A stretch of 64,000 nucleotides of DNA from Escherichia phage EC150. The number at the start of each line of letters is the position of its first letter. The stretch's first letter is position 1. Under the pieces are notes generated by a model that did not search any database, was not told the DNA's origin, and saw only the letters and a list, made by a program, of their open reading frames with translations. The DNA lies in sequence record ON210137.1; one strand, given 5' to 3'. Below, in pieces: positions 1,039 through 61,862 of this stretch. Made by a program: the position numbers and the translations under genes.

Positions 1039-1068
1039 AGGTGAGCTAAATGCTTGCCTTTTCTTTTA
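1039..1068 (+). terminator. rho-independent terminator, copy 1 of a duplicated terminator-promoter element
   Basis: 8-bp stem AGGTGAGC/GCTTGCCT (two G-U pairs, so it folds only in plus-strand RNA), 5-nt loop TAAAT, then TTTCTTTTA. Confidence 0.5.
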
Positions 1069-1114
1069 TCAATACTTATACTCTTTTCATCAAGACTAAC
1101 AAGCGAGGTGAATT

Positions 1115-2551: not shown

Positions 2552-2580
2552 AGGTGAGCTAAATGCTTGCCTTTTTATTT
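2552..2580 (+). terminator. rho-independent terminator, copy 2 of the duplicated element
   Basis: Same stem-loop as 1039-1059 (AGGTGAGC TAAAT GCTTGCCT) followed by TTTTTATTT. Confidence 0.5.
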
Positions 2581-2622
2581 GTCTGTATTATACTTACTTC
2601 ATCAAGCAAAGGAGAGGTTATT

Positions 2623-33292: not shown

Positions 33293-35473
33293 GTGTCTGA
33301 CTCATTAGAAAAATTTGTTCTTCAATATACGGTGGACTTGAAAGAGTCCATCAATCGTCTTGAGCAATTGCAAGATAAGGTTGATCGGTTGATCAGACAA
33401 ATAAAGGCCGCTGGTAAGGACTTCACCGGAGCATTCAAAGATGTGTTTGGTGAGCTGAAGCCTCTCACAGCTGAACTGGGGTCCATTGACGGAATCCTTG
33501 CGCGGCTTACTTATCGCTTTGCCGCGCTCGTTCCTGTTGTCGCAGGATTGGCTGTCGTAGTCAAATCCATTGTTGATGTTCGAAAAGAATACGAAGCGCA
33601 AAGGAAGCTGGGTTTTGAAGCAGGACTTTCACCAATTGGCGTGGAGCAACTACAGCGACAATTGAATGAGAGTTCAGGCGGAGTTCTTGGTGCGCAAGGG
33701 TCAAGGGATTTGATCAGCAAGGCTTCTAATCTCGCATTCAACGCATACACCAACCCAGATGTTATGAACAAGGACAACTTGTTACTTAACAAGATGGGAA
33801 CCAGTCCTTTCAACAGTAACGGCGGCATCAAAGACACAAACCGGCTGCTTGATGAAATTGGCACAAAGCTGAGAAGTGTGAATGAGCAAACCGCTCGTGC
33901 TATTGGTGCTCTGGCAGGTTTTACCGCTGATGAAGTCCGTGCGCTTCGTGAGCGAAATCAATCAGTCAAAGAAAGCACCCGTATAAGCGACGAAGAAACC
34001 GCGAAGCTGCAAAGACAGCAGGTCGCACTTGAAACGATACGAAACAGCATGGGCCAAATTCAAGAAGACTGGCGACGCATTGAACTGGTAATCGGCGAGA
34101 ACGTGATGCCGGCATTCTCGACGCTTGTCAGCAAGACTGCCGATACAGTCGAAGGATTCCAGATGATGTTTCAAAGAATGTCTGATGGATGGTCTGAATT
34201 TGTCGACAATTTCATCGCTGACTTGAAACACCCGTTTGATAAACAGGCGGCTGTCAACGAGCGCCACGAGCGTGCCGTTGATAGATGGATCACTCAGATG
34301 GCTGACGGCGATGTGAAACGCCAGAGGAGTCAGGAGCAAAACGCGGCTGAACAACGTTCTGCGCAAGCACTTTTCACTCGCGATATAAACCTGTTTTCAA
34401 GCGCCGTTTCAACCTTTGCTGGTGTTATTGATGAGCGACAAGCGTGGGCTGCATGGGCTGGTGAGATAGGACGAAGCGCAGGCCAATCCGCAATGCCTGG
34501 CACGCCAGCACTAAGCACTGGTGCGACCGTAGGCAACAACTTGGGGTCAGGAAATCCGACTGCATATGACTCAATCTATGAGGAAGCCTCCAAGCGTTAT
34601 GGAATCCCTGTTGCGATGATGAAGGCCGTCACAGAAGTCGAATCTGGATTCAACCCTAATGCCGTAAGCGGAGCAGGCGCGACCGGACTGATGCAAATAA
34701 TGCCTTCCAACTTCAAGGGACTTGGTATCACAGACGGTAATGACCCAAGACAAAACATTATGGGCGGCGCTCAACTTCTCAAGGAATATTTAACTGCTGC
34801 CAATGGCGATTGGAATCTTGCACTGACTATGTATCACGGCGGATATGACCGCAGCGGATGGGGAAAGAACACCCGTGCATACCCTGGCAAGGTGATGGCC
34901 GCTCTCGAACGACAGGCGAATGGAGAATACGCCACGGGAGCGCCGCAAGGTGCACCAGTTACTCCAGTGCTTAGCGGTAGCGGAGTAGAAGCGTCAAAAG
35001 GCAGCTACGCTCCAGTACAGGGCCAATCCCGCCAAACGGTGCAATACAGACAGTTGCAAGAAGCCATTGCAGGATACCTAAACGTGCCAGTTGAGCAGCT
35101 GATGCAAGGACAAGTCAACAAAGGTGATATTGACTTTGCTCAAACTTACCTTAAACTTGGAACGCAAAGGGATTATATTAAAAACATGCAGCTGGCTTCA
35201 ACTCCAGGTGTAAGGCCGAACATTCAGGCCGAAGCCATGAAGAATGCTCGTCTCGCGGCATTCCAGCTTGAAGCATTCCAGAAATACGGCGGCGACCTTT
35301 CCGCGAATAGTCGACCTGGTGGGCGTGATATTACTATGGGTCAGAAAAACGTTGTCATCAACGTCAACGGCGCTCAAGACCCAAGAAGCACGGCGATTGA
35401 GACTAAGCGTGTGCTTGAACAAGATGATATAAACGACATAAACAACCTTACTGCTACACCTTTGAAGTGGTGA
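33293..35473 (+). CDS. tape measure protein with lytic transglycosylase (SLT) domain
   Basis: 726 aa; coiled-coil-rich N-terminus; TEVESGFNPNAVSGAGATGLMQIMPSNF ... YHGG matches SLT catalytic region. Confidence 0.85.
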   Translation: MSDSLEKFVLQYTVDLKESINRLEQLQDKVDRLIRQIKAAGKDFTGAFKDVFGELKPLTAELGSIDGILARLTYRFAALVPVVAGLAVVVKSIVDVRKEYEAQRKLGFEAGLSPIGVEQLQRQLNESSGGVLGAQGSRDLISKASNLAFNAYTNPDVMNKDNLLLNKMGTSPFNSNGGIKDTNRLLDEIGTKLRSVNEQTARAIGALAGFTADEVRALRERNQSVKESTRISDEETAKLQRQQVALETIRNSMGQIQEDWRRIELVIGENVMPAFSTLVSKTADTVEGFQMMFQRMSDGWSEFVDNFIADLKHPFDKQAAVNERHERAVDRWITQMADGDVKRQRSQEQNAAEQRSAQALFTRDINLFSSAVSTFAGVIDERQAWAAWAGEIGRSAGQSAMPGTPALSTGATVGNNLGSGNPTAYDSIYEEASKRYGIPVAMMKAVTEVESGFNPNAVSGAGATGLMQIMPSNFKGLGITDGNDPRQNIMGGAQLLKEYLTAANGDWNLALTMYHGGYDRSGWGKNTRAYPGKVMAALERQANGEYATGAPQGAPVTPVLSGSGVEASKGSYAPVQGQSRQTVQYRQLQEAIAGYLNVPVEQLMQGQVNKGDIDFAQTYLKLGTQRDYIKNMQLASTPGVRPNIQAEAMKNARLAAFQLEAFQKYGGDLSANSRPGGRDITMGQKNVVINVNGAQDPRSTAIETKRVLEQDDINDINNLTATPLKW

Positions 35474-43479: not shown

Positions 43480-44124
43480 ATGATTAATGCAAACGTAATA
43501 TCTAAAGGGACCGGATGCAGCATGGATGTTGCAGAGAAATGGGTGGACCCTTTCAAGCAGGCTTGTGAGCACTACGGAATCAAAAGCAAGAATGCCATCG
43601 CGGCATTCCTTGCAAACGTAGGAGTAGAGACGGGCAGCTTGAAGACCTTTGTGGAAAATCTCAACTACTCTGCTCAAGGTCTTGCCAATACATGGCCTAG
43701 TCGTTACAGCGTCAGCGGTCGCTCTGGAAGTGCCCCGAACTCATTGGCCCTGTCGATTGCCCGTAAACCTGTGGAAATCGCCAATAATACATATGCAAAC
43801 CGCATGGGCAACGGTTCAGTAGCATCTGGCGACGGTTGGAAGTACCGTGGCCGTGGTGCCATTCAGCTGACTGGAAAGGCCAACTATGCGGAATATACGC
43901 GTCAATCAGGCTATGATGCATTGAACAATCCTGATATTCTGACTGAACCAAAATACATTGCTGACAGCGCGGCATGGTTCTTTAAGAATAGCGGCTGTAT
44001 TCCTCTTGCGGATGCAGGAAATTTTGATTCAACCGTTAAGCGGATTAACGGGGCCGCGCCGAACGCAGCAAACCACGGTGAGTTGCGAAGAAAGCGTTAC
44101 AAAGATGCACTAGCAGTTATGTAA
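43480..44124 (+). CDS. endolysin, glycoside hydrolase family 19-like
   Basis: AIAAFLANVGVETG and GDGWKYRGRGAIQLTGKANY motifs typical of GH19 lysins; no signal peptide. Confidence 0.8.
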   Translation: MINANVISKGTGCSMDVAEKWVDPFKQACEHYGIKSKNAIAAFLANVGVETGSLKTFVENLNYSAQGLANTWPSRYSVSGRSGSAPNSLALSIARKPVEIANNTYANRMGNGSVASGDGWKYRGRGAIQLTGKANYAEYTRQSGYDALNNPDILTEPKYIADSAAWFFKNSGCIPLADAGNFDSTVKRINGAAPNAANHGELRRKRYKDALAVM

Positions 44125-44150
44125 GAAAAAGGCCCATATGGGCCTTTGTT
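44125..44150. terminator. bidirectional rho-independent terminator
   Basis: Palindrome GGCCCATATGGGCC flanked by an A-run upstream and T-run downstream, between convergent endolysin and minus-strand genes. Confidence 0.6.
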
Positions 44151-44380
44151 TATTTTACGGCTTCAACTTGGACGGGCGGAGCGGAACTTGTATCAATGTC
44201 TGGTAAGTCGAAATAATACCCCGCCATACCAATTGCACCCACAATCGCGGCCCGTGCCACCTTGCTGCTAATTGACTCCCCAATAAGCTTTACCAACAGG
44301 GATAAGATTTGAGACATCAAAGCCTTTTTCAGCCTTTTGTTTTCTTCCAAATCTTTCTGCATAACTACCACCCATGTCAA
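44150..44380 (-). CDS. hypothetical protein (76 aa)
   Basis: Last gene of the minus-strand block; contains hydrophobic AAIVGAIGMAGYYF segment. Confidence 0.35.
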   Translation of the reverse strand: MTWVVVMQKDLEENKRLKKALMSQILSLLVKLIGESISSKVARAAIVGAIGMAGYYFDLPDIDTSSAPPVQVEAVK

Positions 44381-44919
44381 CGCACTTCCTGTGTCTTAAC
44401 ATTACCTGAAGCATCTCTCAAGGGCAGTGGATAGTAGGCCATTTGGTAGTCTGATACGCCTTCAATGTGATAAAACACGATTACGTCTTTGCTGTTGATG
44501 AGCATGTTAACGATATCTGATTTATCTTCTGGAGTGAGTATTAGTGCGCCGCCTGTCCTGCTGTCTACTGCAACAGGGTATGTCTTGTCGACAAGGCCGC
44601 TGTCCAATGTATTATACCTGACAACGATTTCAGGGGCATCAACTTTTTCCATTGACATTCCGAACACAAACGACACGACCTGCCGACCGCGATCATTCAT
44701 TACGCACATCTTTTCTTTGTCAAATCTTTCTTTTATTGCGTCGTATTTATTCCAGCAAAACTCAAATGACTGCCCATTGTTGAAATATCTTGTCAAAACT
44801 TTTGCACTTCCATTCGGCGGCGTAAACATATTTTCAGCCGATGCAGTCTTGGTGAAGAATATAACTGTCAGCACAGCCATGATGATGATCAAAACAATCT
44901 TTAACTTGTTCGCTTTCAT
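44377..44919 (-). CDS. secreted/periplasmic protein (180 aa)
   Basis: N-terminal signal-peptide-like sequence MKANKLKIVLIIIMAVLTVIFFTKTASA. Confidence 0.5.
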   Translation of the reverse strand: MKANKLKIVLIIIMAVLTVIFFTKTASAENMFTPPNGSAKVLTRYFNNGQSFEFCWNKYDAIKERFDKEKMCVMNDRGRQVVSFVFGMSMEKVDAPEIVVRYNTLDSGLVDKTYPVAVDSRTGGALILTPEDKSDIVNMLINSKDVIVFYHIEGVSDYQMAYYPLPLRDASGNVKTQEVR

Positions 44920-46072: not shown

Positions 46073-46662
46073 TCAAACTCCTTATTCATCACTTGTTCCA
46101 GCGCATAGGCATAAGCCTGATCAGTCGATTTGATAAACGTTCCGTTGTACATCACACCTTTACGGTCCTTGATGTCTTCATAGGCGGCTTGAGCGCAATC
46201 AGACAGTCGAAGTCCATAATCATGTGCTACGCCGGAAAGATAATCGACTGCGCCCATGATGGTGACATCAATATCCATACTTTGATTTTTAGCAATGGCG
46301 TCACCAAGCCGTCCAAGAGTCTTTGCCAAGCGAAGGATAAACGAGTGAGGGTGAGCGCCTTTGTCAGCGCAACCGCCGCCGTTGATGTCTTCGATTTTTG
46401 CACCGTTTTGCGCGGCAAGAATAGTTAACACAACAAGGCAATCGCCGATGTCATCCTTGATTGCGGATTGTAAATCACAGATGGCCTGCTCTGTATATCC
46501 GATTTCAGGGTCAAAGAACACAAGGTCATGTAATTGATCAACGTGGTCGGTCAACTCCCCAAACTCGCTAATAAGCTTCGGGTATTGGTCCTTAAGGTCG
46601 CAGCCTTGGATGATGTTACGTTCAGAAGCCCACTGGCGAATGTTTGCATAAATCTGGTTCAT
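46069..46662 (-). CDS. mazG: MazG-like nucleoside triphosphate pyrophosphohydrolase
   Basis: KLISEFGELTDHV and DIGDCLVVL motifs of the all-alpha NTP-PPase fold. Confidence 0.7.
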   Translation of the reverse strand: MNQIYANIRQWASERNIIQGCDLKDQYPKLISEFGELTDHVDQLHDLVFFDPEIGYTEQAICDLQSAIKDDIGDCLVVLTILAAQNGAKIEDINGGGCADKGAHPHSFILRLAKTLGRLGDAIAKNQSMDIDVTIMGAVDYLSGVAHDYGLRLSDCAQAAYEDIKDRKGVMYNGTFIKSTDQAYAYALEQVMNKEFE

Positions 46663-47177
46663 TTATTTTCCTTTGATGCGTTGAATTGATCGATTTTAAT
46701 TTTAGCCTGATTATAAGTATCAATCAAGCTATTAACCTTCTCTTTTAATCGGTTTGTTTCTGCGGCGAACTGAACAAGAAATCTGACATCGTCTTCTGAT
46801 AGTCCACAGTTTCCTTCTGGGATAGAGAGGCGTCCAGTGGTCGCAGAGTCGGGCACACTCCTGAGTAACTCACGGGAGCAGCTGAGTTGCTCGCGCAGCT
46901 TGATATTCCCAGACTTGTAACGAGCAATAGTGTCATCAGCAACCAGTTGCGCTTCCTGGCGACCCTTCTCATATGCCGATGCCGATTCAACCTGTAAAGA
47001 TGCAATTTGCTCTTCGAGTGCATTTATCTTGTCCTTACGCTCATTAAGCGATGTCAGATATTGATTATCCTTTGCCAGTGATGCGTTGGTTTGCTGCAGG
47101 TCTTCAACGTATGATCCAGCGGCAAACGCGCCAACAAGGGCAAGAATCTTCAGGAGCGGTACAATTCTTTCTATCAT
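46659..47177 (-). CDS. Rz-like inner-membrane spanin (i-spanin) candidate
   Basis: 172 aa; N-terminal transmembrane segment IVPLLKILALVGAFAAGSYV then coiled-coil-like domain with Cys residues; o-spanin-like ORF embedded in +1 frame. Confidence 0.45.
   Translation of the reverse strand: MIERIVPLLKILALVGAFAAGSYVEDLQQTNASLAKDNQYLTSLNERKDKINALEEQIASLQVESASAYEKGRQEAQLVADDTIARYKSGNIKLREQLSCSRELLRSVPDSATTGRLSIPEGNCGLSEDDVRFLVQFAAETNRLKEKVNSLIDTYNQAKIKIDQFNASKENK
46745..46972 (-). CDS. embedded Rz1-like outer-membrane lipoprotein spanin (o-spanin) candidate
   Basis: Alternative frame inside 46659-47177; MRRVARKRNWLLMTLLLVTSLGISSC gives basic n-region, hydrophobic core and lipobox-like ISSC; short Pro/Cys-containing mature part. 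Confidence 0.35.
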   Translation of the reverse strand: MRRVARKRNWLLMTLLLVTSLGISSCASNSAAPVSYSGVCPTLRPLDASLSQKETVDYQKTMSDFLFSSPQKQTD

Positions 47178-54426: not shown

Positions 54427-54453
54427 ACAAAAAGGCCGCCCATTAGGACGGCC
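54427..54453 (-). terminator. putative terminator after accessory operon
   Basis: Imperfect hairpin GGCCGCC/GGACGGCC preceded on the plus strand by an A-run (U-run in the minus transcript). Confidence 0.35.
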
Positions 54454-54469
54454 ACAGATTCACGATTCG

Positions 54470-55021
54470 TTATACGGTGTACGGAGTACCGTCTTGATTC
54501 AAGCGCACGATAAACTTAAGGTCGACGCCAATAATATCACGCGTGTCAAAGATCACATAGTTGTAGCGACGTTGACCAGCAATGTTAGGATTGGTGTGGG
54601 AGTCGGTGATGACTTCCTGCGCAACCTGAATATGTTCGTTCTTAAAGAACTCACGCCATTCGGCAAGTTCTGCGGCAGTCACGTGCATGCCAAGGTGGCT
54701 AACCTGATTATCGTGCGCATCGATGTATTCAATGTTTTCGTTAATCCAGTTGCAGCCCTTTGTGTAGTCAAGGATTTCAAGCTCAAGAGGCTTACCAGCG
54801 CTGCCATCAGTTCCGTTTCCAGCTTGATAGTTGAAGCGTAAATCAGCTTCGTTGGTGCAATCGCCGCGCTGGCCTTTAAAGTCATCAGATTCAAATACGC
54901 GACCAGTAGCAACAACGTGATCATGGAACCATTCTGTCAGGCCGATTTTAGCCAGGAAATTCTGTGCGCGCTGAGCACCTGGGATTGACAGGGCGATTTG
55001 TTCAATTTTAAAATGTGGCAT
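54470..55021 (-). CDS. VOC/glyoxalase-fold protein
   Basis: FKIEQIALSIPGAQRAQNFLAKIGL and VSHLGMHV fit the two-module pattern of glyoxalase-like proteins. Confidence 0.4.
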   Translation of the reverse strand: MPHFKIEQIALSIPGAQRAQNFLAKIGLTEWFHDHVVATGRVFESDDFKGQRGDCTNEADLRFNYQAGNGTDGSAGKPLELEILDYTKGCNWINENIEYIDAHDNQVSHLGMHVTAAELAEWREFFKNEHIQVAQEVITDSHTNPNIAGQRRYNYVIFDTRDIIGVDLKFIVRLNQDGTPYTV

Positions 55022-55117
55022 TTTGTTTCCTTAATTAAATATTATTGATTAATTACTGTGTTATCTTCGTCCTGTTTCTTTTCAGGAGCGGGTGTGACAA
55101 CTTCAAATGTTCGTGAT

Positions 55118-55801
55118 TTATTTCCCAAATGGAATATCAGTACCAGACATAAAGCGCCATGCGCCCGTAATTAAGATATGGCGAATGAAGTCAGCAATTA
55201 CTTGCGGCTCAGTCTCCAATCCATTCATCAGTGCCTTTTTCTGGTATTCAGCAGCATACTCAGGAGTCCAGCCGCGAGTCGCGCAAACAGCATCTTCAAT
55301 CTGTTTGGACATGCCAGTACCACGTAGCTTGTTAGGACTAATAGAGAATACCGTGATGCCGTATTTAGGCGTAAGCTCGTGAGCCATCTGCTTGCTAATC
55401 ATAAGCGCAGCAGCCTTGGATGCATTATAACACAAGCTGGACGTCATAGGAATGTGCGCAGCGTTAGAAACGATATTGATCACAAAACCTTTGTTGTCGA
55501 TAAGACTTTTCAGCGCGGCTTGAGTCGTGTTAACGAAAGAGAATGCGTTGGTGTGCATAACGCGATTGAACTCTTCGTAGTTAACATCTTCGAACCAGTT
55601 GTTGGAGTTGACGCCAGCGCAGTTGATCAAGCCTTCTACATCATATGGGCTTAAAATTTCTTTCATCTGTTTAGCGTCGCGGACGTCATATCCGTATGCT
55701 GAATCGATGCCAAGCACGTTATGACCGTAAGCGCCAAGGGTGTCAAAAATAGATTTACCAAGACCGGAATTGGAACCTGTTACAACAATTACTTTTTTCA
55801 T
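55118..55801 (-). CDS. short-chain dehydrogenase/reductase (classical SDR)
   Basis: TGSNSGLGK cofactor-binding motif, NCAG, catalytic YNASK. Confidence 0.8.
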   Translation of the reverse strand: MKKVIVVTGSNSGLGKSIFDTLGAYGHNVLGIDSAYGYDVRDAKQMKEILSPYDVEGLINCAGVNSNNWFEDVNYEEFNRVMHTNAFSFVNTTQAALKSLIDNKGFVINIVSNAAHIPMTSSLCYNASKAAALMISKQMAHELTPKYGITVFSISPNKLRGTGMSKQIEDAVCATRGWTPEYAAEYQKKALMNGLETEPQVIADFIRHILITGAWRFMSGTDIPFGK

Positions 55802-55866
55802 TTATTTATCCTTTTTGGACTTCGTTTCGATGAGATAAATATAACTCATCGAAACGCACAAGTAAA

Positions 55867-56739
55867 CTATTTATTGAAATTAATATTATGGGTGTTGACA
55901 AGACGTTCACACATGGCGCTGTAAACACCATCGTCGTGTATTGAGTCTTCGTGCTTCAGGCCGCTGATTGCGAAGCGTGTAAGCTTGACAATCTTAAGCT
56001 CGAACAGATGCCACATGTGGTAGTCTTCCGGCGTTTTCAACGTTACGCCATTAGGGAAAAGCACCTGCATAACCTGGCCTACCATCACAGCGTTATCGCC
56101 ATAGACAGCGTTGCGCTCACGAAAGGTTGCTGCCATTGCATCAAGAATATCGGCGGCAGTTGCCGGAGATTGTTCAACTTCCACAGCCTTAGTCTCTTCT
56201 TGCCCTGTTGCGCTTGGATCAATTGCTAATTGTTGCACCACTTCACCTGCCTTGCAAAGATTAAATGTAAAAGCGATTTTATTTTGAGCAACGGAATTAT
56301 AATACAATGCTTCATCTTGCATCCGCGCGAGTACGTCTTGTCGGTCGTCGAATACGTTGATGATTCGATAATCGCCGTGGCGCAATGCGTGCGATAGCCA
56401 TGCAGATTTCATAATAGTTGATGGACGTTTGTCGCCATAGTCTCTCATCTTGATTGTAAATTCATCAAAAGGAAAAACATTGTCCAGACGTTCAAAAGTC
56501 ACTTGTCTGTATTTTTCTGGCCTTGCAGTCCAATATTCAACCGCCTCACCGCGAAGAGATGCCGACTCTACTGCTGATGCAATGTGAGGATAGAACTGAT
56601 CATAACCAATACCGCTATGATAGTCATCATAGTCTGACAACGGACCTGCCACCTTGATGCGGTCTAAGCGCCAACGGTCATCAAACAGCGTTCCGTCAAG
56701 GTCGAATACGTTTAAGATTTCGCTGTTTTTAATGCTCAT
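55867..56739 (-). CDS. HAD-superfamily phosphatase (T4 Pnk phosphatase-like) fused to an uncharacterised C-terminal domain
   Basis: VFDLDGTLF motif I; later DDRQDVLARM resembles the Pnk phosphatase domain; C-terminal ~140 aa unassigned; 4-nt overlap with upstream ThyX-like gene. Confidence 0.65.
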   Translation of the reverse strand: MSIKNSEILNVFDLDGTLFDDRWRLDRIKVAGPLSDYDDYHSGIGYDQFYPHIASAVESASLRGEAVEYWTARPEKYRQVTFERLDNVFPFDEFTIKMRDYGDKRPSTIMKSAWLSHALRHGDYRIINVFDDRQDVLARMQDEALYYNSVAQNKIAFTFNLCKAGEVVQQLAIDPSATGQEETKAVEVEQSPATAADILDAMAATFRERNAVYGDNAVMVGQVMQVLFPNGVTLKTPEDYHMWHLFELKIVKLTRFAISGLKHEDSIHDDGVYSAMCERLVNTHNINFNK

Positions 56740-57539
56740 CCTTTTGATACTCCATCTTTAGCAACTGGATTGTTGGTGATTGGCATCGCACTCCAAAACT
56801 GGATGCGCAACTCTTCTTGCTGTGACGTGGTATCCATCCAATCACGATACCAAGGGCAATGGGCTTTGCCATGACGAGGAAACGCGCATTTACCCATACC
56901 GATGCATTGCGGCTGTAATAATGGATTTGCCCACGGGTGCACCTTGAGGACTTCCGCAACCATTGCGCGGAATACTTCTTGATACTCGCCTTGAGTGCGC
57001 GTGCACAAGCGGTTTGACGCCATCTGCTGCAGCGTGCGCAAGTTGAACTTTGCCATGATATGCGTTTGCATATTAGAAGGCAACACGGCACGTGCATCTT
57101 GAATCTCTGCGCCAGCCGCGCGAAGCTCTTGATACAAAGCATCGATAGTCGCCATCGCATCATCCCACTTCTCTGCCAGTTCAGCGGCCTTCTCGTCATG
57201 ACGAGTCCATCCCTTTGGATCATCCTCTGGGTAAGTGAATTTAGCAGGACGAATCGCATCAAATGCAGACGACTCCTGAGCGCGGCTGGTGCGTTCTTGA
57301 TATGCGCCTGTGCGTGTGCGTACCATCTGATGGGTCATGTTCTTTGATACATCTGTGATATCAAAGATATAGTCCACAAAGTCAAAAGGCGACTTGATTG
57401 TATCAAGCATGTAGCGCCAATGCTCTTGCTTCTCTGATTCCGTCATCTCAGAGACAGGCTTACCAGTCATGCGCGTGTTCTTTGTTTCCAGCAAAAGGTC
57501 AAGTGCATCTTGGGTGTATCGAATTAATTCAACTTTCAT
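56736..57539 (-). CDS. thyX: flavin-dependent thymidylate synthase (ThyX)-like protein, divergent
   Basis: 267 aa; QMVRTRTGAYQERTSR aligns with the ThyX signature region but His of RHR is Thr; C-terminal TRTQGEYQ...HPW resembles the ThyX SHAQ.E...CPW region. Confidence 0.65.
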   Translation of the reverse strand: MKVELIRYTQDALDLLLETKNTRMTGKPVSEMTESEKQEHWRYMLDTIKSPFDFVDYIFDITDVSKNMTHQMVRTRTGAYQERTSRAQESSAFDAIRPAKFTYPEDDPKGWTRHDEKAAELAEKWDDAMATIDALYQELRAAGAEIQDARAVLPSNMQTHIMAKFNLRTLQQMASNRLCTRTQGEYQEVFRAMVAEVLKVHPWANPLLQPQCIGMGKCAFPRHGKAHCPWYRDWMDTTSQQEELRIQFWSAMPITNNPVAKDGVSKG

Positions 57540-57552
57540 TTTAATTATCCTA

Positions 57553-57999
57553 TTAACGGTAATTCACTAGTTGCTGATCACCAGAGAAGGTGCAATGATA
57601 AACGAATTGTGCGTTATAAAGCAACTGAAAACTTTTCTTTGGTTCATTATTAGAACTCATCGATGTAAAGATTTCTGCACCAGAACGGTTTTCACCAATC
57701 AGATTAATAAAGCCGCCAGTTGAACGAGGCTGGACGAAAGTGAAACGTTGCATCCACGGAGTACGGTTGGCACCTTTCCCTGTGAATCCCTGAATCTGAA
57801 TATTCAGACCTTCTTGCTCGTTCACACCGATGTAAGTGGTAATCTTCGCACCAGTCGTTGCTGCGGTCTTACCGTCCATCGCTTCGCAATCGTAAACAGC
57901 GATTGAATCGGAAGTACGGATGGCAGCTTCAGTCGCTTCCATATACATGGTGCCGAGAATAGCAGTTGCGGCAAGCGCGATTCCAGTGATTCGTTTCAT
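57553..57999 (-). CDS. secreted protein of unknown function (148 aa)
   Basis: Signal-peptide-like N-terminus MKRITGIALAATAILGTMYMEATEA; two Cys in mature part. Confidence 0.5.
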   Translation of the reverse strand: MKRITGIALAATAILGTMYMEATEAAIRTSDSIAVYDCEAMDGKTAATTGAKITTYIGVNEQEGLNIQIQGFTGKGANRTPWMQRFTFVQPRSTGGFINLIGENRSGAEIFTSMSSNNEPKKSFQLLYNAQFVYHCTFSGDQQLVNYR

Positions 58000-58064
58000 T
58001 TCCGTTTCCTCTATGAGTTCTGCTTCAATGATTAAAGTATACGCCCATTGAAGCAGAAAGCAAA

Positions 58065-59060
58065 TTATTTATTAGCAATATAAGCAAATTTTTGATAGTT
58101 ATTTGCTTTGATGAGTTTTTCAACTTCAACAAGGTCATGAGCGACGTCATCAAGCAAAATGTTGCGCCAGGTAGCAAATCGACCGACACTAAACACGTTC
58201 AAATCCATGGTCAGCTGCAGGAGTAGGGCGTGTCGCAAGTCTTTCGGAATGTCGACAATCTTGCCATATTTCTGGTCGACCTTTTCAACTTCTTCAAGAG
58301 CAATGTCACTCCATGAGAGGCCAAAAGCTGTCAACACTTCGTCGACTTCTGCGCGCAGCTTGATGTCACGGTAACGAGTGATGCCGCCAGCGGCTTCAAC
58401 TGCAGCTTCACTCACGCTGACCAAAGGAATTGTTTCAATGATCAGTGTGTCGCCAGTGATTGATGCGCGGTAAGTTCTGACGGAGTAGTCAGGGAAGTAA
58501 ATTGTTTGATACAAATCACACTTACGTTTAATCTTAAAGCGGTAAACGCGAATGTTTGCTTTATCAAATGAGAAATCAAGCTTTTGATCAATCCCAGCCA
58601 GCTTCATCATGACTGGCAGCGGCGACGTGTTGATGATTGGCGTCTCGCTATAGCCGCAAAGAGTATCAACCGGAGTATTAAAGAATATGCGGTCACCCAG
58701 TTTGTCGACAAGCTGATCATAAAAGTCATCAGGCGCAATATAACGTGTTGCAGTCTTAAGCTTCATGATTGAACGGCTGCCAAACTGATTGGTGACCTTC
58801 ATGGAATACATATTGGCAAGGTTGATTGGGCAATGGTCGTGGTAGTAGTTGCCGCGAAAATACACAGCCTTGTCAACTGTCACGGCCTTGAAAGGGATTC
58901 CGGTAATACGGCTTACTTCTTCGCCGCGAAAGCGTAGAAGCGCCTTGTGCTGTTGCGCTCGTTCCCCTGCTTCGTACACAATAGAGTTCGGGAAGTGACA
59001 CGCTGTGATAAGTCCTGCCAGTCCGCCGCCGATAATCATTACAGGTTGTTTCATGTTCAT
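58065..59060 (-). CDS. FAD/NAD(P)-binding oxidoreductase
   Basis: N-terminal Rossmann dinucleotide-binding motif VMIIGGGLAGL; 331 aa. Confidence 0.65.
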   Translation of the reverse strand: MNMKQPVMIIGGGLAGLITACHFPNSIVYEAGERAQQHKALLRFRGEEVSRITGIPFKAVTVDKAVYFRGNYYHDHCPINLANMYSMKVTNQFGSRSIMKLKTATRYIAPDDFYDQLVDKLGDRIFFNTPVDTLCGYSETPIINTSPLPVMMKLAGIDQKLDFSFDKANIRVYRFKIKRKCDLYQTIYFPDYSVRTYRASITGDTLIIETIPLVSVSEAAVEAAGGITRYRDIKLRAEVDEVLTAFGLSWSDIALEEVEKVDQKYGKIVDIPKDLRHALLLQLTMDLNVFSVGRFATWRNILLDDVAHDLVEVEKLIKANNYQKFAYIANK

Positions 59061-59137
59061 TTGTCCTTTGTGGGTGATATGAGAAGTATAATAGCTAAAT
59101 TATTTTACAGCAACAAGTCATTTTATTTAGTACAGAT

Positions 59138-59165
59138 GAAAAAAGACCCACAACAAGTGTGGGTC
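59138..59165 (-). terminator. rho-independent terminator after Lys/Ala/Glu-rich gene
   Basis: 8-bp stem GACCCACA/TGTGGGTC, 5-nt loop, U-run in the minus-strand transcript. Confidence 0.5.
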
Positions 59166-59192: not shown

Positions 59193-60038
59193 TTATTCCG
59201 CTTGATCACCGTCTTCGGCATCTTCGTTGGATTCAACATCGACAAACTCGATGTGACCCATCTCTTCCAGCTTGCTCAGGTAGGAGCGAACTGAAGCGCC
59301 AAACAGTTGATCTTTAACTTTTTCGCCCAGCTCATCGATAGACTGTGCCACGCCAACTTCGCCTTCTTTGATCGCCGCCAGAACGCGTCCACGGGTGGAA
59401 TGCTCTTGCGGCTGACTCAGGCCATTGCCAGTGTAGATGAAGTGAGTAGCTTTTGCACGACGCTGACCATTGGCCTTTTTGGCAGCCTTACGTTCTGCGA
59501 TGGCTTTGCGACGTTCTTCAGCTTCTTGCTTACGCTGTTCTTTCTGCTGTTCTGCAGCTTCTTTCGCCGCAATCTTAGCAGCTTCACGCTCTGCCTTGCG
59601 TTTCGCTTTGGCTTCTTCTTTGGCCTTCTCTTTTTCGGCCTTCGCTGCAGCACGGGCTTGATCACGCTCTGCTTTCTTAGCAGCAGCTTGTTCAGCTTTC
59701 AGGCGCTTGGCTTCTTCTTTAGCCTTTGCCTTTTCGATTTCTTTCGCTGCTTTAGCGGCTTCACGCTCTGCTTTCTTAGCAGCAGCCTTTTCTGCACGCT
59801 CTTTGGCCTTCTTGGCTGCTTCTTCAGCACGCTTCTGAGCCTTCTCATCAGCAGCCTGCTTGCGTTTCAGGGCAGCTTCTTCACGCTTGGCTTGTTTTTC
59901 CTGCTCACGCTTCTGGCGTTTTTCTTCGGCTTCTTTCTTTTTAGCCAGACGTTTTTCTTCAGCCACGCGACGACGTTCTGCTGCAGCTGCTTGTTTTTCT
60001 TCTTTAGATAATACTTTGATTGCTTCGGCCATGTTCAC
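59193..60038 (-). CDS. Lys/Ala/Glu-rich low-complexity protein with acidic C-terminal domain
   Basis: About 190 aa of charged helical repeat (EEKR..KAK.EA...) then a ~90-aa C-terminal domain ending in an acidic tail. Confidence 0.6.
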   Translation of the reverse strand: MNMAEAIKVLSKEEKQAAAAERRRVAEEKRLAKKKEAEEKRQKREQEKQAKREEAALKRKQAADEKAQKRAEEAAKKAKERAEKAAAKKAEREAAKAAKEIEKAKAKEEAKRLKAEQAAAKKAERDQARAAAKAEKEKAKEEAKAKRKAEREAAKIAAKEAAEQQKEQRKQEAEERRKAIAERKAAKKANGQRRAKATHFIYTGNGLSQPQEHSTRGRVLAAIKEGEVGVAQSIDELGEKVKDQLFGASVRSYLSKLEEMGHIEFVDVESNEDAEDGDQAE

Positions 60039-61702: not shown

Positions 61703-61862
61703 TTCAGGCGACCTTTGTTAGTGCGGAAATATTTTCTGATAGTATAATTGCAGATATAGTATAAAGCAAAGTAAATCGAAATTGTGAACTAAATGGTAAA
61801 TATTGTTGACTTTGTATCACTCAATATTATACTGCAGGTATTGATCACCGAAGGAAAGAAAG

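Follow-up and report, generated by a model that had tools for sequence, protein, structure and literature searches.

Periplasmic beta-barrels of the size considered here are typically protein inhibitors, such as PliC/MliC and the T6SS immunity proteins, or ligand binders, such as the lipocalins and avidins. Among phage-encoded proteins, Spackle (gp61.3) of T4 is made early, bears a signal peptide and a single disulfide, and inhibits the tail lysozyme in the periplasm (PMC7677548). Llp of phage T5 acts from the periplasmic side and contains an intramolecular disulfide (PMC9586334). For Wifcevirus phages, almost nothing is known about how the host envelope is handled after infection. Members of the genus serve as agents against E. 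coli O157, and the therapeutic Pseudomonas PB1-like phages are their close cousins. Superinfection exclusion and envelope protection matter when phages are combined in cocktails. A conserved, predicted-exported protein encoded behind a host-type promoter is an easily cloned candidate for exclusion or protection. For one of these phages, vB_Eco4M-7, in vitro assembly has been reported (PMC11074155).

Here, such a gene was analyzed in a stretch of 64,000 nucleotides from Escherichia phage EC150 (ON210137.1), referred to below as the window. The window belongs to the genome of a Wifcevirus; this virulent myovirus of E. coli/Shigella is a relative of the PB1-like phages, and the 6-kb region around the gene is 94 to 97% identical to WFH, ECML-117, Mansfield, FEC19, and the BASEL phages Bas98-101. 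The first-pass annotation had placed a 148-aa ORF with two Cys residues between a FAD gene and thyX. This ORF was recovered at 57553-57999 (-), with exactly two Cys (C38 and C136) and with the neighbors as described (Table 1). By tblastn, it was matched in 28 phage records at 96 to 100% amino acid identity, that is, in 28 of the 28 Wifcevirus genomes found, and all 28 records annotate it as "hypothetical protein." No source in the cluster look-up names the protein, and the Mansfield genome announcement does not mention the gene. The GC content is 45.2%, and GC and codon usage are the same as in the neighboring genes. The pooled pN/pS over six Wifcevirus genomes (Nei-Gojobori) was 0.07, compared with 0.036 for the UGM-like flavoprotein neighbor. 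With its Shine-Dalgarno site, its presence in all 28 genomes, and this low ratio, the ORF is a real, translated, genus-wide Wifcevirus gene under strong purifying selection.

Table 1. Positions in the window of the 148-aa ORF, its signals and neighbors, and the other envelope or lysis genes discussed
Feature	Position	Strand	Basis or remark
CDS, 148-aa precursor, stop codon included	57553..57999	-	ORF with ATG start
Shine-Dalgarno GAGGA	58007..58011	-	7 nt 5' of the ATG
Predicted Sec/SPase-I signal peptide, residues 1-25 (MKRITGIALAATAILGTMYMEATEA), predicted cut A25/A26	57925..57999	-	n/h/c architecture; diverged signals at the homologous position in all family members
Mature domain, residues 26-148 (123 aa), predicted eight-stranded up-and-down beta-barrel	57556..57924	-	AlphaFold model
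Cys38 codon, strand 1, invariant in family	57886..57888	-	Family alignment
Cys136 codon, strand 8, invariant in family; presumed disulfide partner of Cys38	57592..57594	-	Alignment and model
Sigma70-like promoter TTGCTT-N16-TATACT, directly upstream of the ORF	58036..58063	-	Recurrent motif; promoter-like element at homologous position in relatives
Hairpin with 14-bp stem enclosing the -10 element, dG -19.1 kcal/mol	58018..58058	-	Identical in six Wifcevirus genomes
TTGC-N17-19-TATACT copies	1054-1082 (+), 2567-2594 (+), 58036-58063 (-), 59085-59113 (-), 61741-61769 (-)		59085-59113 lies upstream of the UGM-like gene
UGM-like FAD protein, 331 aa, upstream neighbor, N-terminal GGGLAG motif	58065..59060	-	phrog_4828; conserved in 361 phage records
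ThyX, downstream neighbor	56736..57539	-	Pfam Thy1 E=1.3e-30; start 13 nt after the stop of the 148-aa ORF
Intrinsic terminator closing the preceding unit, followed by promoter 59085-59113	59145..59165	-	Also annotated in Mansfield
Intrinsic terminator ending the unit with the 148-aa ORF, thyX, HAD/PNKP, SDR, and VOC genes	54434..54453	-	Also annotated in Mansfield
Second secreted protein, 180 aa, N-terminus MKANKLKIVLIIIMAVLTVIFFTKTASA|EN, signal ending TASA|EN	44377-44919	-	Predicted signal peptide
76-aa protein with hydrophobic segment	44150-44380	-	phrog_5165
GH19 endolysin	43480-44124
i-spanin with embedded o-spanin	46659-47177	-	Mansfield annotation; between MazG-like and Pam3-gp34-like genes

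The gene sits in a gap of a conserved backbone, in the order helicase, Lys/Ala/Glu-rich protein, UGM-like protein, thyX, HAD/PNKP phosphatase, SDR, VOC-like protein, exonuclease, and Pol III alpha. Every family member lies directly after a UGM-like FAD protein of ~320 aa and before thyX, sometimes together with one or two extra small ORFs. The flanking backbone is far more widespread than the gene: the UGM-like protein matches 361 phage records, mostly of Pseudomonas Pbunavirus, and 333 of these 361, with the same enzyme set, lack the gene. The slot is empty in Xanthomonas phage Carpasina, where the two flanking genes are adjacent, and it holds five unrelated small ORFs in Pseudomonas phage 14-1, one 86-aa ORF in Serratia phage SMP, and one 135-aa ORF in Salmonella phage PCSE1. 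None of the slot ORFs of 14-1, SMP, and PCSE1 has a signal peptide. We infer a plastic, promoter-proximal accessory position between the UGM-like gene and thyX, in which the EC150 gene would be a long-kept occupant in one lineage. Since the slot appears plastic, the gene would be an accessory gene and not a step of nucleotide metabolism. The same gap can be viewed as a promoter-proximal hot spot for lineage-specific accessory genes in PB1-like phages.

This bears on two proposals of the first-pass annotation. The first, that the gene may be a moron, agrees with the variable promoter-proximal slot and with the presence of a promoter-like element of its own. A recent arrival is not indicated: base composition does not deviate, GC and codon usage are those of the neighbors, the position is the same across genera at 17 to 33% identity, and pN/pS is 0.07. 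No terminator stands in the 13-nt gap before thyX. The second, that an exported protein is out of place in a nucleotide pathway, is right in that the protein is not a pathway enzyme and overstated otherwise. Envelope-acting genes among replication genes are normal in EC150, because the i-spanin and o-spanin genes are also found among ligase and MazG genes in the same-strand block.

Besides the UGM-like flavoprotein and ThyX, the terminator-bounded unit at 54434-59165 (-) encodes a HAD/PNKP-type phosphatase that has an additional C-terminal domain, an SDR, and a VOC/glyoxalase-like protein, together with a small ORF. Hundreds of PB1-like phages share this unit, which could represent a nucleotide or DNA-modification pathway. 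Considerable restriction resistance has been reported for Wifcevirus phages (PMC11990801). Within the unit, thyX of Ro157lw is 27 nt longer and out of register in an ungapped comparison (L016 1661-2491 and L017 1661-2464, versus window 56736-57539), and thyX of ECML-117 shows non-synonymous divergence (pN about 0.06) much above that of the flanking genes. This suggests that thyX contains an indel or a recombination patch. The Lys/Ala/Glu-rich low-complexity protein (281 aa, 59193-60038, -) is called "TolA" in several records, a label that is probably due only to composition; the protein was seen by mass spectrometry in phage preparations (PMC7048862).

The promoter upstream of the 148-aa ORF is one of five copies of the motif TTGC-N17-19-TATACT in the window, compared with 0.33 expected, and all five copies are intergenic and on the coding strand. 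In the homologous intergenic region, a sigma70-like promoter was present in every relative examined: TTGACA-17-GATAAT in PA1, TTGACG-17-CATAAT in SMP, TTTACT-17-TAATAT in 14-1, and (T/C)TTGCT-17-TATACT in L002, L003, and L008. For phage 14-1, 26 sigma70-like promoters and short transcription units have been mapped experimentally (PMC10914365). The hairpin at 58018-58058 has a perfect stem and no T-run, which rules it out as a classical terminator; a hairpin of other sequence is found at the same place in the metagenomic relatives L003 and L008. Host RNA polymerase would transcribe the gene from its own sigma70-like promoter, plus read-through from upstream, and the gene and thyX are predicted to be co-transcribed, because thyX starts 13 nt after the preceding stop. 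Judged from the promoter-like sequence only, expression would be early.

The N-terminus of the EC150 protein consists of MKR, ITGIALAATAILGTMYM, and EATEA|AIRT. The n-region (MKR) carries two positive charges (+2), the h-region comprises 17 uncharged residues with a maximum 8-residue KD of 2.41 and a 19-residue mean of 1.38, which makes it shorter and weaker than a transmembrane helix, and the predicted cleavage site TEA|A has Thr at -3, Ala at -1, and no Pro at +1. No twin-arginine motif was found in this signal, and no lipobox L-[ASTVI]-[GAS]-C was found in the EC150 protein, whose first Cys is residue 38, or in any family member. A crude signal-peptide heuristic was positive in 5 of 238 shadow ORFs (2%) and in 6 of 92 gene-like ORFs, the six including the i-spanin, the second secreted protein, and a FAD-binding GxGxxG protein, a known false-positive type. 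One heuristic positive on its own is weak evidence for a signal peptide, because about 2% of shadow ORFs also score positive.

The comparison with diverged relatives is more informative. An exhaustive phmmer scan over 1.84 billion representatives returned one distant relative (E=7e-5), and follow-up searches, with the family profile later run against 5.8 billion proteins, gave a total of seven related protein clusters. The members come from Wifcevirus, the Pantoea Kylevirus phages PA1 and Kyle, and five metagenomic phage contigs, and identity across genera is 17 to 33%. They start with MK(R/T), followed by a hydrophobic core of 15 to 18 residues and small residues at -3/-1. A positive n-region is found in all seven clusters, as is A at -1 and A, S, T, or V at -3. 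The h-regions of the homologs reach a KD of 2.6 to 3.3, and their cleavage sites (VGA|A, VGA|G, ATA|G, ANA|A, and SFA|A) fall in the same alignment column as that of the EC150 protein. The signal sequence diverges much faster than the mature part across the family; in P0003 and P0005, for example, the mature parts are near-identical and the signals, of 25 and 18 residues, differ in sequence. Signal sequence turnover beside a steady mature part is the classic behavior of a cleaved targeting peptide.

Export is supported because all seven diverged clusters keep a tripartite signal at the same alignment column, far beyond chance. The EC150 product is very probably exported by a signal conserved in kind and not in sequence, and the conserved Cys pair fits an oxidizing compartment. 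The clear N-terminal signal peptide noted in the first-pass annotation was thus borne out as a predicted Sec/SPase-I architecture. Compared with the homologs, however, the EC150 N-terminus has a less hydrophobic core (maximum KD8 2.41) and more acidic residues in its c-region (EATEA). It may therefore stay uncleaved or act as a SAR-type anchor, like that of T4 RI, instead of being a cleaved signal.

The family is very small, phage-only, and undescribed, and it is absent from Pfam, PHROGs, and NCBIfam. No Pfam family matched the EC150 protein or four homologs even at E<=0.1 (MliC, lipocalin, avidin, YceI, and OMP included), PHROGs and NCBIfam scans of the protein and its homologs gave nothing, and the family profile matched nothing among all PDB sequences at E<=10. 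By the Pfam, PHROGs, NCBIfam, and PDB profile searches, no sequence relation to characterized exclusion factors or lysozyme inhibitors was detected. IMG/VR scans with two homologs returned nothing, and two sub-family alignments run against GTDB genomes and JGI metagenomes yielded no new member, only a contig already known. Any function found for this family would therefore be a new annotation. In Pantoea phage Kyle (L020 1882-2809), the slot holds two small signal-peptide, two-Cys proteins in tandem, the family member gp076 and gp077. The start of gp077 is more likely internal, at MKRFIIAAAAIVAASTLCPVAVHA|ES. It has a short AVY..C...LYS..TP.G stretch in common with the family, and homology of gp077 to the family lacked statistical support (hhalign probability 10%).

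To model the fold, AlphaFold was run on the mature sequence with an eight-row family alignment. The model (pLDDT 79.1, pTM 0.74) consists of eight antiparallel strands, arranged up and down, with a short helix placed in the first loop, and an independent BFVD model of the Mansfield ortholog superposes on it at TM 0.88. A single-sequence run on the full-length protein was uninformative (pLDDT 42); its N-terminal segment was unstructured, and the mature domain is predicted to fold without this segment. The mature core measures 104 to 108 aa in most family members and 123 aa in the EC150 protein. The invariant Cys pair lies near the end of strand 1 and at the start of strand 8 of the model. A C38-C136 disulfide that closes the barrel is likely, because strands 1 and 8 adjoin in a closed barrel. 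Taken jointly, export and the barrel fold are held with high confidence. The fold matches are generic barrels (Cap15, PliC, lipocalins, and avidins), along with one T6SS periplasmic immunity protein, and carry no functional signature, and Foldseek returned no match below E=0.01 for the model. Thus, of the checks proposed in the first-pass annotation, structure prediction gave a compact barrel at pLDDT 79, and the fold search gave only generic barrel matches. The idea of a periplasmic binding protein in the classical SBP sense disagrees with the predicted fold, a small eight-stranded beta-barrel.

The second secreted protein mentioned in the first-pass annotation is also real: at 44377-44919 (-), a 180-aa protein begins with a predicted signal (MKANKLKIVLIIIMAVLTVIFFTKTASA|EN). 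No Pfam, PHROG, or NCBIfam match was found for it, and its distribution is as narrow as that of the 148-aa protein (Wifcevirus and Pantoea Kylevirus). Kinship between the two proteins was rejected (BLASTP E 0.94). Together with the 76-aa protein gene, it forms a two-gene unit between terminators (44150-44919, -) that converges on the GH19 endolysin. The 76-aa protein may be the counterpart of PA1-LRP, the "lysis-related protein" of Pantoea phage PA1 (PMC11538084). The spanin pair at 46659-47177 is far from the endolysin, and the lysis genes are dispersed in the EC150 genome.

We propose the following function. The Sec pathway would export the 148-aa protein, and signal peptidase I would cut the 25-residue signal, releasing into the periplasm a soluble mature form of about 13.5 kDa. 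This form would be a compact eight-stranded barrel closed by the C38-C136 disulfide between the first and last strands, and its gene would be accessory cargo of the replication/nucleotide transcription unit and not a pathway step. In the periplasm, the barrel would bind or inhibit, stoichiometrically, some conserved component of the envelope or of a phage tail, and the outcome would be a superinfection-exclusion or protection-from-without factor, by the logic of T4 Spackle or the PliC/MliC barrels. A candidate target is the SLT transglycosylase domain, at about residues 430-530 of the virion protein at 33293-35473, with a conserved host envelope protein as the alternative. The SLT-domain protein has been detected in virions (PMC7048862). 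In lysate/virion mass spectrometry of vB_Eco4M-7 and ECML-117, the VOC-like, SDR, and Lys/Ala/Glu-rich neighbors were detected and the 148-aa protein was not (PMC7048862), an absence that weakly fits a non-virion protein and that also counts against the proposal. Variable receptor-binding domains have been described for Wifcevirus (PMC11990801). The partner would be a conserved one, not the variable O-antigen or receptor-binding proteins, because the very low pN/pS of 0.07 is not what an arms race with a changing partner would leave. The whole chain, from the exported barrel to a binder or inhibitor in superinfection exclusion or envelope protection, is tentative, and we hold it with somewhat less than even confidence. 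Superinfection exclusion, one of the suggestions of the first-pass annotation, is thus a reasonable guess.

The leading alternative is a periplasmic small-molecule binder of lipocalin, avidin, or YceI type that, instead of blocking a protein, sequesters a lipid, an isoprenoid-linked intermediate, a cofactor, or a signal. We consider it doubtful. The mature core of 104 to 108 aa in most members is below lipocalin size, the model has neither a C-terminal helix nor an N-terminal GxW motif, and no Pfam lipocalin, avidin, or YceI match appeared even at E 0.1.

The localization and fold evidence for a periplasmic binder or inhibitor serves equally well for an envelope-directed host-takeover or anti-defense factor. 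Such a factor would favor the ongoing infection, and not exclude other phages, by binding a host periplasmic or membrane protein such as a protease, a nuclease like EndA, Tol-Pal, Bam/Lpt, or the periplasmic part of a defense system. The strong purifying selection fits a conserved host target, the phages that carry the gene all have Enterobacterales hosts, either Escherichia/Shigella or Pantoea, and the fold matches include a T6SS periplasmic immunity protein. However, no candidate target has emerged, the Pfam, PHROGs, NCBIfam, and PDB profile searches gave no homology to known anti-defense proteins, and Serratia and Salmonella relatives with the same genome backbone do without the gene. This role ranks second among the alternatives and is improbable.

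A third alternative, improbable and ranked below the host-takeover factor, draws on the composition of the N-terminus. In a lysis-timing regulator such as a T4 RI-type antiholin, the weakly hydrophobic, Gly/Ala/Thr-rich N-terminus would be of the signal-anchor-release type, with a holin or spanin as the binding partner of the periplasmic domain. The core ITGIALAATAILGTMYM is indeed G/A/T-rich and only moderately hydrophobic, the EC150 lysis genes are scattered among replication genes (the spanins, and the 76-aa membrane protein and second secreted protein beside the endolysin), and unusually fast lysis has been reported for Wifcevirus (PMC11990801). However, the cores of the homologs are stronger and their cleavage sites, for example ANA|A and SFA|A, are of the textbook AXA form, no lysis gene adjoins the 148-aa ORF, and related phages with the same lysis genes lack it. 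In addition, the periplasmic domain of T4 RI is helical, whereas the EC150 domain is modeled as a barrel.

A barrel with an export signal could also be a small outer-membrane protein of the OmpX/Ail/Lom or PagL kind, inserted by Bam and altering the cell surface. Natural eight-stranded OMPs comprise about 150 aa, and the family members, at 104 to 123 aa when mature, fall below this size. Five of the eight predicted strands span only 6 to 9 residues (membrane-spanning strands, at least 10), the C-termini (YR, WTK, YRK, KY, and NY) lack a consistent terminal aromatic beta-signal, a Cys pair is conserved, a short helix occupies a loop, and no OMP Pfam match was found. When the hydrophobicity and conservation of alternate strand faces were compared, as a contrast between soluble and outer-membrane barrels, the entropy was equal on both faces. 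An outer-membrane barrel is unlikely, with a slim chance at best, because of the small mature size, the short strands, the C-termini, and the Cys pair. Finally, a cytoplasmic component of the nucleotide or DNA-modification pathway, with an N-terminus that is no signal and a barrel that binds a nucleotide as the Cap15 barrel binds cyclic dinucleotides, is highly improbable. All members keep the signal architecture even as its sequence turns over, the gene is missing from 333 of the 361 phage records that have the same enzyme set, a conserved Cys pair is in keeping with the periplasm, and by the positive-inside rule the barrel lies outside the cytoplasm.

For the preferred reading, a periplasmic binder or inhibitor in exclusion or envelope protection, several known systems offer a comparison. 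Llp of T5 and Cor resemble the EC150 protein in being small phage-encoded proteins with action on the periplasmic side and an intramolecular disulfide, which is predicted for the EC150 protein. However, Llp and Cor are lipoproteins with a lipobox Cys, whereas the EC150 family has no lipobox, and the llp gene adjoins that of the receptor-binding protein, whereas the EC150 gene is not near tail-fiber genes. Compared with lipocalins and avidins, the EC150 protein is smaller and lacks their family sequence signatures; strand 8 is the last element of its model, which lacks the C-terminal helix of lipocalins, and GxW is absent. The Cap15 barrel is a cytoplasmic domain behind two transmembrane helices, unlike the EC150 barrel, which is predicted to be periplasmic.

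The PliC/MliC inhibitors are eight-stranded periplasmic beta-barrels, as the EC150 protein is predicted to be. They insert a conserved loop motif, SxSGAxY, into the active site of their target, and this motif is not conserved in the EC150 family. Moreover, the EC150 protein and four homologs have no MliC Pfam match even at E 0.1, and PliC scores below other generic barrels as a fold match.

Spackle is similar in biology and different in structure. Both proteins are small, carry an N-terminal export signal (predicted in the EC150 protein) and one Cys pair, are encoded away from the lysis genes, and belong to a virulent myovirus. Spackle binds the peptidoglycan hydrolase of the incoming tail, and EC150 also has a virion peptidoglycan hydrolase, the SLT domain. 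However, Spackle is a 75-aa alpha-helical bundle, whereas the EC150 mature domain is a 123-aa predicted beta-barrel with an all-beta model, and the PDB profile search detected no sequence similarity between them (nothing at E<=10). A bolder and doubtful version of the proposal is that the EC150 protein is the founding member of a new family of periplasmic beta-barrel inhibitors, which would provide Spackle-like exclusion in PB1-like myoviruses of Enterobacterales by blocking an SLT-type tail transglycosylase or some other conserved step in the passage through the envelope. If this is true, the family would represent a second, structurally independent solution to exclusion, convergent with the bacterial PliC/MliC inhibitors.
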